In this document: piece by piece, positions 4,346 to 9,603 of the stretch
Position numbering within the stretch: the first letter of the stretch is position 1
How the letters are laid out: every line of letters begins with the position of its first letter
Virus genome (UHGV): UHGV-0371394
DNA from: a virus
Direction: 5' to 3' (one strand)
Length of the DNA stretch: 12,221 nucleotides
Translations under genes and position numbers: made by a program
Notes under the pieces: generated by a model
The model's database searches: none
What the model saw: only the letters and a program-made list of their open reading frames with translations
What the model was told of the DNA's origin: nothing

Positions 4346-4735
4346 TCAGGCGGCTGCACCCGCCGTTTTCTCGTACTTACTGATAGTGATCTCGACCTTC
4401 CCTTCCGGGACAACCGGTCCCCACTCCACCAGCATTCTTTTCACCTGACTGTCGTCTTCCCACACACCCGCGTGGGTCAGGGCGTCAAACAGCGCCTTGT
4501 TATAGTTGTCCAGATCGCGGATCCGGTTATCCGGTGGAAACAACACGATCTCCACTGCAGCAGGTGCCGACGTTGGTTTCGGCAGACGACGTAACTGCTC
4601 AACTATTGCTGCGCACGCCGCGCTCTGGAATTTTCGCCCCGCCGCGCTTATCAGGCTCTTACCAGCAAACGCCCCTTTGTTGGGGTGTCGCCAGTACGTG
4701 TTGACGCTGGGCGGAAAAGGCAGAATAAGCTTCAT
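4346..4735 (-). CDS. rusA: Holliday-junction resolvase RusA
   Basis: 129 aa; MKLILPFPPSVNTYWRH...RDLDNYNKALFDALTHAGVWEDDSQV matches the RusA family motifs (recalled E. coli RusA: PWPPSNNRYYRH...[28 protein letters not shown]); ATGA start/stop overlap with the upstream gene. Confidence 0.85.
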   Translation of the reverse strand: MKLILPFPPSVNTYWRHPNKGAFAGKSLISAAGRKFQSAACAAIVEQLRRLPKPTSAPAAVEIVLFPPDNRIRDLDNYNKALFDALTHAGVWEDDSQVKRMLVEWGPVVPEGKVEITISKYEKTAGAAA

Positions 4736-5058
4736 ACTTTCAGGCCCCTCTCATGTAACCAGTGGGCTGCACGCAGCCTTGCGTTTTCCTCACCGGCAAG
4801 CAGTGAGCGGATAATCCCGACCGCCTCGCTGTCGTCGTCCTTCACCGCGGTATGAAGCGTGATCCCCCGGGCCACACCACGCTTTATCGTGATGACGCCT
4901 TTTTTCTCCAGTGCGCGAAGATGCTCCACCGCTGCATTCACCGAACGGTATCCCAGCATGGTTGCCACCTCCTGATTGGTTGGCGGGAAGCCACGTTCTT
5001 TCTGATAAGAAATCAGCATATCCAGCACCTGCTGCTGGCATTGAGTTAACGTCGTCAT
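4732..5058 (-). CDS. LexA N-terminal DNA-binding-domain protein (winged HTH only, no S24 peptidase domain)
   Basis: 108 aa; MTTLTQCQQQVLDMLISYQKERGFPPTNQEVATMLGYRSVNAAVEHLRALEKKGVITIKRGVARGI aligns position by position with E. coli LexA residues 1-70 ([66 protein letters not shown], recalled), including the recognition helix S-x-NAA-x-EHL. ATGA overlaps at both ends. Confidence 0.7.
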   Translation of the reverse strand: MTTLTQCQQQVLDMLISYQKERGFPPTNQEVATMLGYRSVNAAVEHLRALEKKGVITIKRGVARGITLHTAVKDDDSEAVGIIRSLLAGEENARLRAAHWLHERGLKV

Positions 5059-7149: not shown

Positions 7150-7488
7150 CTATTTCCCTGAATTTACGACGAAACTGTTCGAGCGGACTGAAGCATTCAT
7201 GCTCATAACCTTCGCGGAGGTAGATAACCCGTTGTGTTTCCGGCTCCCAACGAATGACTCTGACGGGCACTCCGTAGTGATCTTTGAACCAGCGGTTAAC
7301 TTGTCGCAAAGGACTGTCTCCTTCTGCCGGTTGAAATCACCCACAGCCCACTCTGCAAAGCTGTGGGTTACAATTTCCCTGTCACCTGGTACATTCACTG
7401 CATAGCAATATTCCACCTTCGCTTTTCCACCCGGTACAGGAAGCGCAATCAGTTGCGAGCGACGGTAGTGTGTTGTTAAACTGTTCAT
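7150..7488 (-). CDS. Hypothetical early protein; 3' part of this frame looks non-genuine (possible frameshift, see findings)
   Basis: ATG at 7488 overlapping the upstream stop (ATGA). The first roughly 65 codons are protein-like; the C-terminal 45 are S-rich low complexity, while an alternative frame (7130-7309) is protein-like and ends 9 nt inside the initiator gene. Confidence 0.4.
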
Positions 7489-8042
7489 GCGTTAGTTTCT
7501 CCACAACCAGAAGCAATCGACGCCACGACGCCCGGAGCTGCACACTCGCGGGCGTCATTACTTTCTGAAATGCAAAAAATTTTGTAGACAAGTGCTGCAT
7601 GCTCCTGCAGCTTCGAAATTGAGAGATACAGCTCGTCGTTAATTGCTGTCTTCTCATGCGGTTCCACTACACCGTCTTCGATTGCTGAACGAATCTGTTT
7701 TGAATAACTGCCGATCTGTTCAATGACTTCCAGCAGACGCTGGTTAATATCGGCGTTGTCCACATCCTCGACGTCAGGAAGAGACACAAAGACGCCATTT
7801 GCAGACTGCGCCACAGCATCAGCAATGAAGTGAGTGCCACCAGCACGCTGTAAAACCATTGCCCATCCCAGCGGGAAAATCTGATCGCCATCTGCACGAA
7901 GGCGGTTGAATAAAGCGTTTTCTGTTACATCGAGCCAGTCAGCCGCTTCAGCGTAACCACCCGGCAACGCCGCGATAGTTTTTCTGACAGCTTTCACGTA
8001 CCACTCAGGCTGTTTTTCTATTTTCCAGTGATGCTTACCCAC
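7485..8042 (-). CDS. Hypothetical early regulatory protein at the cII position (possibly CII-like / Phage_CP76-like)
   Basis: 185-codon ORF starting at GTG 8042 with strong SD AGGAGGT 6 nt upstream; immediately downstream of the cro-like gene. Family assignment is by position and weak recollection only. Confidence 0.45.
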
Positions 8043-8295
8043 GGCTTACCTCCTGTTCCTGTGGTTTTAACTCATTCCGGTTTTGACTAGATTGAAAGCG
8101 TGCAGGATAGAGAATCTGCATTTCGCTGATTTCTCCCTTAAAAAAATTGGCCAGACGCTCTGCAAGATCGATAGATGGAATTTGTTCCAGTCTCTCAATA
8201 CGACTCAGCGTTGCTGGATTAACCTGAACGCCCGCAGCAACATGCTGCAAAGTAAACCCGTGCGCCTTACGCACATTTCGTAATGGTGATTGCAT
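8035..8295 (-). CDS. Cro-like HTH (XRE-family) repressor, divergent from cI
   Basis: 86 aa; ATG 8295 with GGAGG SD; HTH segment RKAHGFTLQHVAAGVQVNPATLSRIE; divergently oriented to the CI repressor across an operator region. Confidence 0.75.
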   Translation of the reverse strand: MQSPLRNVRKAHGFTLQHVAAGVQVNPATLSRIERLEQIPSIDLAERLANFFKGEISEMQILYPARFQSSQNRNELKPQEQEVSRG

Positions 8296-8392
8296 ATAAC
8301 CTCCACATATTGCGTGATGAGCATATTATTTCACGCAAATATTTTGCGCAAGTTGATTTGCTTAACGCGCAATAAAGAAATGTAATAAACGC
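8296..8392. promoter_or_regulatory. OR region: divergent promoters (pR towards cro, pRM towards cI) with operator half-sites TTGCG/CGCAA
   Basis: Inverted repeat TTGCGTGA-N13-TCACGCAA (8310-8338), palindrome TTGCGCAA (8344-8351) and 15-bp site TTGCTTAACGCGCAA (8358-8372) sharing TTGC-N7-GCAA with the OL sites. Candidate pR on the minus strand: -35 TTGCGC, 17-nt spacer, -10 TAATAT. Candidate pRM: -35 TTGCTT, -10 GTAATA ending about 6 nt before the cI ATG. Confidence 0.6.
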
Positions 8393-9085
8393 ATGAACAT
8401 AGGAAATCGAGTCAGACAACTTCGCCAGGCGAAGAACATGAAAATCGCCGATCTCGCTGAAGCAATAGGAGTGGATGCGGCGAATATCTCACGCCTGGAA
8501 ACAGGTAAGCAGAAACAATTCACTGAACAAGCCCTGAGTAATATTGCCAGGAGCTTAGGTGTTGATATTGCTGATCTCTTTACCTCAGACTTCAAAAGTA
8601 ATACTGTATGTAAAAACAGTATTAGTGAGGATGTTGCGCAGGTGAAGGATGTATTCCGTATTGAAATGCTGGATGTCAGTGCCAGTGCGGGAAATGGCCT
8701 TATCCAGGGCGGTGATGTCATTGATGTGATTCATGCCATTGAATACAGAACTGATAATGCTGTATCGATGTTTGGCGGACGACCAGCCAATCACATTAAA
8801 GTTATCAACGTTCGTGGGGACAGTATGTGTCCAACCATTGAGCCAGGAGATCTCATCTTCGTTGATGTCAGTATCAATCAGTTTGATGGAGATGGTATCT
8901 ATGTATTTGGTTTTGATGATAAAATTTATGTCAAACGACTGCAAATGATACCTGACAAACTACTGGTGATTTCGGATAATCAGATTTACCGTGAATGGGG
9001 AATTACCAGCGAAAATGAACACCGGTTTATGGTCTTTGGAAAGGTCTTAATCAGCCAGTCACAAACCCTTAAGCGACACAATTAA
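8393..9085 (+). CDS. cI: CI-type phage repressor (N-terminal HTH_XRE, C-terminal S24 LexA-like autopeptidase domain)
   Basis: 230 aa; N-terminal HTH (MNIGNRVRQLRQAKNMKIADLAEAIGVDAANISRLETGKQ); C-terminal VRGDSMCPTIEPGDLIFVD...KIYVKRLQ with the Ser/Lys dyad context of S24 peptidases; flanked by the OR and OL operator sets. Confidence 0.9.
   Translation: MNIGNRVRQLRQAKNMKIADLAEAIGVDAANISRLETGKQKQFTEQALSNIARSLGVDIADLFTSDFKSNTVCKNSISEDVAQVKDVFRIEMLDVSASAGNGLIQGGDVIDVIHAIEYRTDNAVSMFGGRPANHIKVINVRGDSMCPTIEPGDLIFVDVSINQFDGDGIYVFGFDDKIYVKRLQMIPDKLLVISDNQIYREWGITSENEHRFMVFGKVLISQSQTLKRHN
8602..8621. promoter_or_regulatory. LexA (SOS) box-like palindrome TACTGTATGTAAAAACAGTA inside the cI coding sequence
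   Basis: Matches CTGT-N8-ACAG with flanking TA on both sides; 17/20 identical to the E. coli SOS-box consensus TACTGTATATATATACAGTA; lies in the cI interdomain linker codons (TVCKNSI). Confidence 0.5.
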
Positions 9086-9105
9086 CCCTTACCTCCTCAT
9101 CAATT

Positions 9106-9127
9106 AGCCACCCGAAGGTGGCTTTTC
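9106..9127 (+). terminator. Intrinsic terminator downstream of cI
   Basis: Hairpin agccacc-cgaa-ggtggct followed by TTTT, 20 nt after the cI stop. Confidence 0.55.
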
Positions 9128-9140
9128 ACTACCCATTAAA

Positions 9141-9195
9141 TTGCATATCTCGCAACAAAACACTTGCATAATGCGCAAATTCATTTTATCTTTCT
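9141..9195 (+). promoter_or_regulatory. OL operators and putative pL (plus-strand early-left promoter)
   Basis: Two 15-bp sites TTGCATATCTCGCAA (9141-9155) and TTGCATAATGCGCAA (9164-9178), 8 bp apart, same TTGC-N7-GCAA architecture as the OR site; candidate pL -35 TTGCAT (9164-9169) and -10 TATCTT (9187-9192). Confidence 0.55.
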
Positions 9196-9603
9196 TTCCA
9201 GACAAACAAACAAGGTACTAACAAAATTTGGTTGTAACACGGCGTATGGCACATGCGTCGTTAGCGGTCTGGGGACGTTAAAGGGGACAATCCACTCCTT
9301 GCTCGGGCAAACAAACCAGGTAGCCGGAATGTGCAAGTCAATGATGATGCTGATAAGACGCCTAACCAGCGTGGCGATTCGGTTTGACGCCTGGGAAGAG
9401 ACCAGGGTGCAACGATGAGGGCATTTATGGAACCGCGACAAAGTGTGGTGCCGTAACTGGCTAAGTGCTCTCAGCGTTGTGGTAATCCGCGAAATGGCGC
9501 GGCGGTAAGTATGGCGGGGTTACTCTTTCCCCGTTGAGGACACCGGATTGTCAGGTTGACCATACGCCTGAGTGACAACCCCACCACAACAGCCACTGCT
9601 TTG

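Follow-up and report, generated by a model that had tools for sequence, protein, structure and literature searches.

A near-consensus LexA box within a prophage repressor gene

The DNA analyzed here is a stretch of 12,221 nucleotides (nt) from the viral genome UHGV-0371394, referred to below as the window. It comes from a lambdoid prophage of E. coli, of which it covers the early and immunity region, and is 100% identical to a prophage of E. coli strain CMZE063. Our subject is the cI-type repressor gene of this prophage and, in particular, a putative binding site for LexA (an SOS box) embedded in its coding sequence. Positions 8000–9300, which include the gene, share 96–97% identity with phages mEp460, PhiR63_1, 1720a-02 and Stx2a_1447 and 90% with Shigella phage SfII. 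When used as a query, the same region finds a match covering at least 80% of its length in 1040 of 5426 complete E. coli genomes, that is, in about one of every five. In the identical E. coli prophage, mEp460, SfII and Stx2a_1447, the repressor is annotated either as cI or as 'XRE family regulator'.

According to Pfam, the repressor combines a helix-turn-helix (HTH) domain of the XRE type (residues 3–64; HTH_3/HTH_26/HTH_31) with a Peptidase_S24 domain (residues 104–218; PF00717). The linker between them, roughly residues 65–90, is hypervariable between homologues in a protein alignment. On the other hand, the residues of the predicted autocleavage site and the catalytic residues (A99, G100, S144 and K181) do not vary at all across a 20-sequence protein alignment. 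As its sequence indicates, the gene that hosts the box is a LexA/CI-type S24 repressor, putatively autocleaving.

Compared directly with the consensus TACTGTATATATATACAGTA, the box, TACTGTATGTAAAAACAGTA, matches in 17 of 20 positions. Read in frame, it encodes N T V C K N S I in the inter-domain linker. The coordinates, the number of matching positions and the domain limits found with Pfam all agree with a previous reading of the window made from the sequence alone, which had placed a LexA box in the linker codons of cI. The exact pattern CTGT-N8-ACAG occurs nowhere else in the 12.2-kb window. The chance expectation for its 12 fixed positions in a sequence of this length, put at about 0.001 by the sequence-only reading, came to about 7e-4 on recalculation. 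We also scored the site with a LexA weight matrix based on 21 E. coli operators known from the literature. It received 25.9 bits (heterology-type index of 3.2), which falls inside the range of the 21 known operators (12.3–27.5 bits). On the same matrix, the operators of umuDC, recA and sulA score 27.5, 22.7 and 22.6 bits, and the second-best site of the window reaches 9.0 bits. Thus, by score, TACTGTATGTAAAAACAGTA is among the strongest E. coli LexA operators. A chance match is ruled out by the uniqueness and the score of the site together with its conservation, described below. A literature search returned no electrophoretic mobility shift, footprint or chromatin immunoprecipitation data on the box at 8602–8621. 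The features of the locus are collected in Table 1.

Table 1. Features of the repressor locus and of related regions of the window
Feature	Position	Strand	Remarks
LexA-domain protein, 108 amino acids (aa)	4732-5058	-	LexA DNA-binding domain; PF01726, E 3e-19
CII-family gene	7485-8042		divergent from cI
cro-like HTH gene	8035..8295	-	divergent from cI; Pfam HTH_3; annotated Cro in related phages
cI-type prophage repressor gene	8393..9085	+	230 aa; list of open reading frames (ORFs), Pfam
Candidate -35, TTTACC	8579..8584	+	predicted; overlaps Leu-Phe-Thr codons at the end of the HTH domain
LexA operator (SOS box), TACTGTATGTAAAAACAGTA	8602..8621	.	codons 70-77 of the repressor
Candidate -10, TACTGT	8602..8607	+	predicted; left half-site of the LexA box
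Shine-Dalgarno (SD)-like GAGGA	8627..8631	+	10 nt upstream of the internal GTG
Proposed nested in-frame ORF	8642..9085	+	147 aa; GTG is cI codon 84 (8642-8644)
Predicted autocleavage site Ala99-Gly100 (GCG GGA)	8687..8692	+	invariant residues
Catalytic Ser144 codon	8822-8824	+	invariant residue
Catalytic Lys181 codon	8933-8935	+	invariant residue
Intrinsic terminator hairpin AGCCACC-CGAA-GGTGGCT, then TTT	9106..9126	+	directly past the cI stop; fold energy

Conservation of the box at the DNA level

Homologues of the repressor were retrieved by protein similarity, giving 24 loci from contigs sampled at one genome per species, in addition to annotated phages. It turned out that 21 of the 24 genomic homologues, down to 54% amino acid identity, have a box of 18.8–29.1 bits at the same place, gene nt 210; in Proteus, which has a one-codon deletion, the box is at gene nt 207. 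The genera represented are Shigella, Citrobacter, Kluyvera, Klebsiella, Pseudescherichia, Buttiauxella, Trabulsiella, Pantoea, Mixta, Rosenbergiella, Proteus and Serratia. Among annotated phages, the box is present at the same gene position in SfII, Eeyore, ST64B, Klebsiella phage 1 LV-2017 and Citrobacter phiNP. It is also found in Salmonella Fels-1, whose repressor FsoR is 52% identical and has the box TACTGTAAATAAATACAGTG, and in Cronobacter ENT47670 (50%). The SfII allele matches the umuDC operator letter for letter.

At the protein level, the box coincides with a T-V-x-x-x-S pattern that is kept amid hypervariable linker residues. The codons are even more telling. Across 13 genes that are less than 90% identical in nucleotides, the codon is always ACT for Thr71 (13/13), TAT for Tyr73 (11/11) and AGT for Ser76 (13/13), and the codon preceding ACT has T as its third base in 11 of the 13. 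Only six of 115 conserved residue columns in these genes use a single codon throughout; three of the six (Thr, Tyr and Ser) are inside the box, and box columns are the only ones among the six with four- or six-fold degeneracy. Elsewhere in the gene, the share of the commonest codon does not exceed 62% in other Thr columns and ranges from 33 to 85% in other Ser columns. Residues in the middle of the box do vary (C/Y/H/N/D/E/F at one position, K/I/N/E/T and others at the next, N/Y/H/T/S at the third), only in ways that LexA tolerates. When codons were shuffled synonymously within each gene, a box of at least 18 bits appeared on average in 1.2 of 18 genes (at most in 5), compared with 18 of 18 observed. 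Moreover, of 79 near-identical IMG/VR copies that were read, 75 have an unaltered box and four differ in it by one base. Beyond the LexA motif, there are no strictly conserved nucleotides on either side of it.

Given the codon fixation and the outcome of the shuffles, the palindrome is therefore best seen as a DNA element under purifying selection, one that shapes the peptide rather than the reverse. The sequence-only reading had held that the palindrome is a functionally meaningful LexA operator rather than a chance occurrence, and had suggested weighing its conservation in cI homologues against synonymous drift. That comparison upholds the claim: the palindrome persists at the DNA level while synonymous sites and the neighboring linker diverge. 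We are highly confident that the box represents a selected LexA operator.

The box is not universal among S24 repressors. We did not find it within the genes of e14 CohE, BTP1, PhiR34_1, ST101-KPC2phi6.1 and Yersinia 30.14, nor in those of the distant repressors of HK022, Providencia PSTCR7lys, Mannheimia PHL101 and Klebsiella RCIP0114. Its absence from e14 CohE and the more distant repressors indicates that the module of which it is a part is confined to a single clade. RCIP0114, considered as a possible free-standing gene for a C-terminal domain, is in fact a full-length repressor with a different N-terminal domain.

A separate observation concerns several lambdoid phages that lack the cI box. 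At the junction of cII and O, they have LexA-like sites of moderate score (8–13 bits) that follow the pattern TCCTGT-N8-(C)CAGT(T/A) (loci L241, 160–179 (HK022); L238, 1582–1601; L035, 814–833; L037, 740–759; L034, 751–770). This is the position of the oop/pO region in lambda, and the site at 7466–7485 of the window (8.5 bits) is analogous.

A ribosome-binding site and start codon downstream of the box

Immediately past the box, the window has an SD-like string followed by an in-frame GTG. The duplex of this string with the anti-SD sequence has a predicted energy of -6.3 kcal/mol, compared with a background of -1.8 kcal/mol, the mean over all in-frame codons, of which 5.8% reach -6. A similar arrangement recurs across the family. 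In 15 of 18 non-redundant box-bearing genes, the aligned codon 87 is a start codon (GTG in 12, ATG in two and TTG in one). GTG accounts for 12 of the 14 Val codons at this column, compared with 19% elsewhere. About 8 nt upstream of column 87 there are strings of the GGAG/GAGG type with a mean anti-SD energy of -7.2 kcal/mol, and they are retained though the residues they encode change (E-G, G-D, R-R, G-R, E-V). The gene of Fels-1 FsoR, for example, has a GTG start with AGGAG.

To count such sites, we required a start codon with an SD of -5 kcal/mol or stronger within codons 84–90. This combination is present in 17 of the 18 genes, and synonymous shuffles produced it in 3.0 ± 1.3 (at most 9); any other seven-codon window of the gene has it in no more than five of 18. 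A scan of IMG/VR with a DNA pattern added 19 more non-redundant box-bearing genes, 49–73% identical to the window protein. All except one of the 19 have a start codon exactly 12 codons before the Ala-Gly pair, with an SD of -5.2 kcal/mol or stronger. The remaining gene and the single exception of the first set both have a GTG with GAGGT four codons before Ala-Gly. Pooling of the two sets gives a start with an SD located 9–16 codons before Ala-Gly in 35 of 37 non-redundant box-bearing genes. The SD and the start are placed some 20–30 nt past the box; the spacing between box and start, at 20–29 nt, is similar to that in umuD and sulA.

Relatives of the repressor that lack the box provide a natural comparison. 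None of eight close box-less relatives (two from Dryocola, one each from Phaseolibacter, Yersinia 30.14, ST101-KPC2phi6.1, PhiR34_1 and BTP1, and e14 CohE) has a start and an SD at the corresponding place. One of the two Dryocola genes (L021, Dryocola clanedunensis) retains a GC-rich relic of the box at gene nt 210–229, CGCTGTGCAAAAGCACAGCG, in which CTGT-N8-ACAG is intact and the score is down to 8.9 bits. Its column 87 is a Gly codon, so that the internal start is gone. In this lineage, the module seems to have decayed as a whole. From this pattern of occurrence, the box and the internal ribosome-binding site (RBS) with its start codon appear to have been gained and lost together.

Among the four distant box-less repressors (HK022, Providencia, Mannheimia and Klebsiella RCIP0114), a start with an SD is found only in Mannheimia PHL101. 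The cI gene of this phage (L240, 39% identical) has an in-frame ATG, with an SD of -6.0 kcal/mol, exactly 12 codons before Ala-Gly. Since no box accompanies them, the internal initiation of C-terminal isoforms may predate LexA control or extend beyond it.

A candidate internal promoter

A scan of positions 7900–9500 for generic consensus promoters found nothing at the box on either strand. We then turned to a crude sigma-70 matrix. With this matrix, TTTACx-17-TACTGT is the best sense-strand candidate in 27 of 37 non-redundant genes, and it is built from constrained sequence. The corresponding transcript would begin at about 8614–8616, within the box itself. The mean of the best sense-strand scores is 7.2 bits, which belongs to the top 4% of background windows. 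In two homologues the box starts with G or C, which breaks TACTGT; both have a TATAAT inside the box and a -35 of their own, at 10.8 bits each. Taken together, the scans offer supportive but weak backing for a sense promoter.

A putative gene nested within the repressor gene

A conserved module of operator, RBS and start codon implies a nested gene under LexA control. The ORF translates as (M)KDVFRIEMLDVSASA|GNG... and continues into the S24 domain, so that an N-terminal arm of 15 residues precedes the Ala-Gly pair. The predicted product, of about 16 kDa, would thus comprise an S24 domain with its Ala-Gly site and no DNA-binding domain. It is 36% identical to the core of UmuD over 83 aa. The notion that the box gates an internal sense transcript for a truncated isoform of the repressor is the simplest reading that makes use of all three features (the box, the promoter candidate and the RBS with its start), and on balance we favor it, if only by a little.

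Under this model, the LexA of the host would, in an undamaged lysogen, sit on the -10 element and the transcription start and thereby shut the internal promoter, leaving the full-length repressor, made from pRM, as the only product. DNA damage would deplete LexA and allow the internal sense promoter to fire. The resulting transcript, with a short leader (25–35 nt to the start codon), would run from about 8614–8616 to the terminator that follows cI. The terminator hairpin has a fold energy of -11.8 kcal/mol (z = -4.0), and its SfII counterpart is annotated as a putative rho-independent terminator; it would stop the full-length and the internal transcript alike. Translation from the GTG at 8642 would then yield the 147-aa S24 dimerization and autocleavage domain. 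As the strength of the box resembles that of late SOS operators such as umuDC, expression would presumably need deep or sustained damage.

S24 C-terminal domains mediate dimerization and higher-order contacts in both LexA and CI. Mixed oligomers with the full-length repressor are therefore, in our view, the likeliest way for the isoform to act: such pairing would weaken operator binding and cooperativity. In a variant of this scheme, the isoform would cleave the full-length repressor in trans, as has been described for LexA and lambda CI fragments. Either way, an input gated by LexA would be added to RecA-stimulated self-cleavage, and the commitment to induction would become sharper. Thus, the isoform is probably a built-in modulator of induction and most likely a dominant-negative partner of the repressor. 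That its net effect is to promote induction is a tentative proposal, which we would not put at even chances. It could equally act with the opposite sign, as a decoy that would delay induction by competing for RecA*. Similarly tentative is the broader idea that the prophage repressors of a widespread enterobacterial clade have an SOS-inducible antagonist of their own, encoded inside the repressor gene; such an antagonist would poison the repressor, cleave it in trans or cross-talk with the repressors of other prophages. The clade extends to Shiga-toxin phages, serotype-converting phages of Shigella, Fels-1 and ST64B of Salmonella, and prophages of Klebsiella and Citrobacter.

Several published observations bear on the model. 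In Salmonella LT2, C-terminally tagged FsoR of Fels-1 gave rise to 'cleavage products' after treatment with mitomycin C (PMC3121763). Neither of two known small RNAs (sRNAs) maps to the box: svsR is encoded by the 3′ end of a cI gene (PMC12803456), and STnc1310 of ST64B is found some 325 nt past cI. Rfam has no match in the cI gene. As for svsR itself, it is a 77-nt sRNA from the 3′ end of cI of the E. coli lambdoid prophage NC-SV and limits infection by other phages (PMC12803456). If the cI gene of NC-SV belongs to the box clade, such a 3′-end RNA could derive from an SOS-inducible internal transcript that stops at the terminator of cI.

A number of points speak against a LexA-controlled nested gene. 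One is experimental: lexA3(Ind-) does not stop the activation of a Fels-1 late-gene fusion by mitomycin C (PMC3121763). LexA release is therefore not needed for induction, and any role of the module would be accessory, in timing, threshold or cross-talk. In addition, the paper on the ST64B transcriptome (PMC7067206) mentions no feature inside cI. Other points concern the comparative evidence. The homologues are related phylogenetically, so that there are fewer independent events than the counts suggest; the 19 IMG/VR genes, moreover, were chosen for having the box. The Glu, Gly, Asp and Lys residues of the linker favor purine-rich, SD-like strings, and the shuffles control for linker composition only in part, as the residues themselves may have been shaped by the signal. 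One Klebsiella phage has no good SD at the position of the internal start. The window departs from the family in its GTG, which is at codon 84, with a rather long SD spacing of 10 nt, and not at the typical codon 87. Its promoter candidate is weak, at 7.3 bits. Finally, neither promoter element amounts to independent evidence, since the -35 is largely a product of conserved Leu-Phe-Thr codons and the -10 belongs to the box.

Alternative roles of the box

The sequence-only reading had listed four possible roles for the box: a roadblock to transcription from pRM, an internal SOS-regulated promoter, an antisense element, and a target of a phage protein with a LexA domain encoded elsewhere in the window. 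Comparative evidence favors the internal promoter and weakens the case for the phage protein as the main ligand.

Of the alternatives to a nested gene, the roadblock fares best, and even so we consider it unlikely. LexA bound 210 bp into the gene would partly block polymerase arriving from pRM or pRE, so that synthesis of the repressor would be damped as long as the cell is undamaged and would rise upon LexA cleavage. A lysogen would then be buffered against weak or transient SOS signals, and the internal RBS and start would be either used constitutively from the full-length mRNA or unrelated to the box. An operator within a transcribed region is what this explanation calls for, and the lack of strict conservation in the flanks is what one would expect if LexA binding alone were needed. 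The lexA3(Ind-) result, in which induction proceeds with LexA bound (PMC3121763), fits as well. On the other hand, a roadblock leaves unexplained both the fixed position of the box in the gene and the SD with an in-frame start 20–30 nt farther on, which are lost together with the box. It also predicts more repressor during the SOS response, counter to the logic of an SOS-inducible prophage. Intragenic roadblock operators are well established elsewhere (PurR in purB, sites of CcpA and CodY), but roadblocks made of a single dimer distant from the promoter are usually weak.

Less probable still is an antisense function, in which the box would repress a minus-strand promoter and an SOS-induced transcript would run through the 5′ half of cI into the right operator (OR) and cro. 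By collision or RNA pairing, in analogy with antisense RNAs of lambdoid switches, such a transcript would lower cI expression, a direction that would favor induction. The minus strand of the palindrome does contain -10-like hexamers (TACAGT, TATTAT), and minus-strand scores near the box are above background (a mean of 5.9 compared with 2.75 bits). Nevertheless, the best minus-strand candidates differ in hexamers and spacings between homologues, their -35 regions fall into hypervariable sequence, and the sense strand scores higher (paired Wilcoxon p = 0.003). An antisense promoter also ignores the conserved SD and start on the sense strand.

The idea that the box serves above all to bind the LexA-domain protein of the phage itself, which would be uncleavable and occupy LexA boxes in lytic growth, appears very unlikely to us. 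The protein as such is real: the sequence-only reading had pointed to a LexA-domain protein, and Pfam bears this out with a highly significant match. The 108-aa protein has a complete LexA winged-helix domain, 43% identical to residues 1–90 of E. coli LexA, in which the recognition-helix residues S39, N41, A42, E45 and H46 are conserved. Pfam detects no S24 domain in it. Its gene is located in the delayed-early region, between a gene for a Dam-like methyltransferase and rusA. The protein is widespread in lambdoid phages of E. coli and Shigella, including Stx2a, Stx2c, SfII, SfIV, SfV and cdtI, and it is encoded by every E. coli or Shigella phage found with the present cI allele. The distribution beyond this allele argues against a dedicated partnership. 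ST64B, Fels-1, phiNP, Eeyore, ENT47670 and the Klebsiella phages all keep the box, yet they do not appear in the 60 records listed, out of 61, for phages that have a relative of the protein. Conversely, many phages whose cI allele is a different one have the protein as well, among them the Stx2c phages, cdtI, SfIV and SfV. The protein may therefore be an additional ligand of the box and not the reason the box exists. In its own right, it would be an uncleavable mimic of LexA, and it could re-repress SOS boxes, that of cI among them, during lytic growth.

The last possibility, that the palindrome has no function in DNA and is a by-product of a T-V-Y/C-K-N-S peptide motif or of chance, with the SD-like string reflecting linker composition or a translational pause, is hardly credible: T-V-x-x-x-S is indeed conserved in the protein and linkers are rich in residues with purine-rich codons, but a constraint on the peptide is ruled out because ACT (one of four Thr codons) and AGT (one of six Ser codons) are fixed in every diverged lineage, it accounts neither for the T that precedes ACT in 11 of 13 genes nor for the choice of GTG for Val, residues in the middle of the box vary as a LexA box tolerates, and synonymous shuffles reproduce neither the box nor the start with its SD.

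Other features of the immunity region

The intergenic region between cI and the divergent cro-like gene (8296–8392) presumably holds the OR operators and the pRM and pR promoters. Both this region and positions 9130–9200 contain candidate operators for the repressor with the pattern TTGC(G)-N-(C)GCAA, for example TTGCGTGA...TCACGCAA and TTGCGC...GCGCAA. They are thus located on either side of the cI gene, which matches the expectation for OR and its left counterpart, OL. On the minus strand, at 8259–8275, just within the 5′ end of the cro-like gene, there is a terminator-like hairpin with a T-rich tail; it could be due to chance or be an attenuator of rightward early transcription.

Farther away, two segments of the minus strand (1138–1337 and 1417–1663) match the sRNA STnc100 in Rfam with 140 bits. 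They adjoin three tRNA genes, which in the identical annotated prophage are those for Arg, Arg and Ile and are situated upstream of the lysis region.

Implications and relation to known systems

In textbook accounts, prophage induction proceeds either through RecA-stimulated self-cleavage of CI, as in lambda, or, in 186 and the Gifsy phages, through a LexA-controlled antirepressor whose target is a repressor that cannot be cleaved. If the nested-gene model is correct, a single gene combines both mechanisms, with operator, promoter, RBS and start codon all accommodated in linker codons. Induction would then integrate two SOS inputs that can be tuned separately, the co-protease activity of RecA* and the occupancy of the box by LexA. 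The repressor allele is found in medically relevant prophages, including Stx2a phages, Shigella SfII, Salmonella ST64B and Fels-1, and Klebsiella prophages. The module could therefore influence the release of toxin and phage-mediated gene transfer when antibiotics induce the SOS response. More generally, 'hypervariable linkers' can conceal regulatory DNA, and nested cistrons are missed by gene callers.

In the literature searched, we found neither an intragenic LexA box in a cI gene nor a truncated repressor made from an internal start. What is new here is the conserved module of operator, RBS and start in the cI linker; it can be viewed as a variation on known LexA-controlled modulators of prophage repressors.

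The closest parallel in terms of regulation is offered by Tum of coliphage 186 and Fels-2 and by GfoA, GftA and GfhA of Gifsy-1/2/3 (PMC3121763), where, as is proposed here, a LexA operator in a prophage controls a small protein that acts on the repressor, LexA serving as sensor and the switch of the prophage as output. In those phages, the repressor is non-cleavable, whereas here it is an S24 repressor of the RecA-cleavable type. Their antirepressor is the product of a separate, unrelated gene at another place in the genome; the frame described here is nested in the repressor gene and corresponds to the repressor's own C-terminal domain. Also, LexA cleavage is required for induction of the Tum and Gifsy phages and dispensable for Fels-1. 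Because LexA cleavage is not required for induction, we do not assign the module to the Tum/Gifsy class of antirepressors.

The predicted product itself is reminiscent of UmuD: both have a short arm, an Ala/Cys-Gly cleavage site, an S24 fold and no DNA-binding domain, and LexA represses umuD as it would the nested gene. The difference is that there is no umuC partner here. The nested product would be an isoform of a repressor and not a subunit of a polymerase, and its predicted partner is the full-length repressor.

In its genetic layout, the proposed nested gene resembles Inh of Tn5/IS50, where one frame gives two proteins and the shorter one, devoid of the DNA-binding N-terminus, keeps the capacity to oligomerize and antagonizes the longer. 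The Tn5 transposase promoter has even been reported to be LexA-sensitive. Inh, however, belongs to another protein family and another biology, and it is constitutive rather than induced by stress.

The PurR operator in codons 62–67 of purB is likewise located in coding sequence, some 200 bp past the promoter, and constrains the codons that it overlaps. Roadblock operators of this kind are not known to be followed by an RBS and start codon or to have promoter-like geometry, whereas in the cI genes both are present and co-vary with the box. Lastly, Hex of phage 434 (PMC3564112) illustrates that a second protein of the cI transcription unit can modulate RecA-stimulated autocleavage and the stability of the lysogen. 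Hex differs in having an ORF of its own, whose overlap with cI is limited to the 3′ end; in lysogens it is made from the pRM transcript without control by LexA and is not an isoform of the repressor, as the product of the nested frame is predicted to be.

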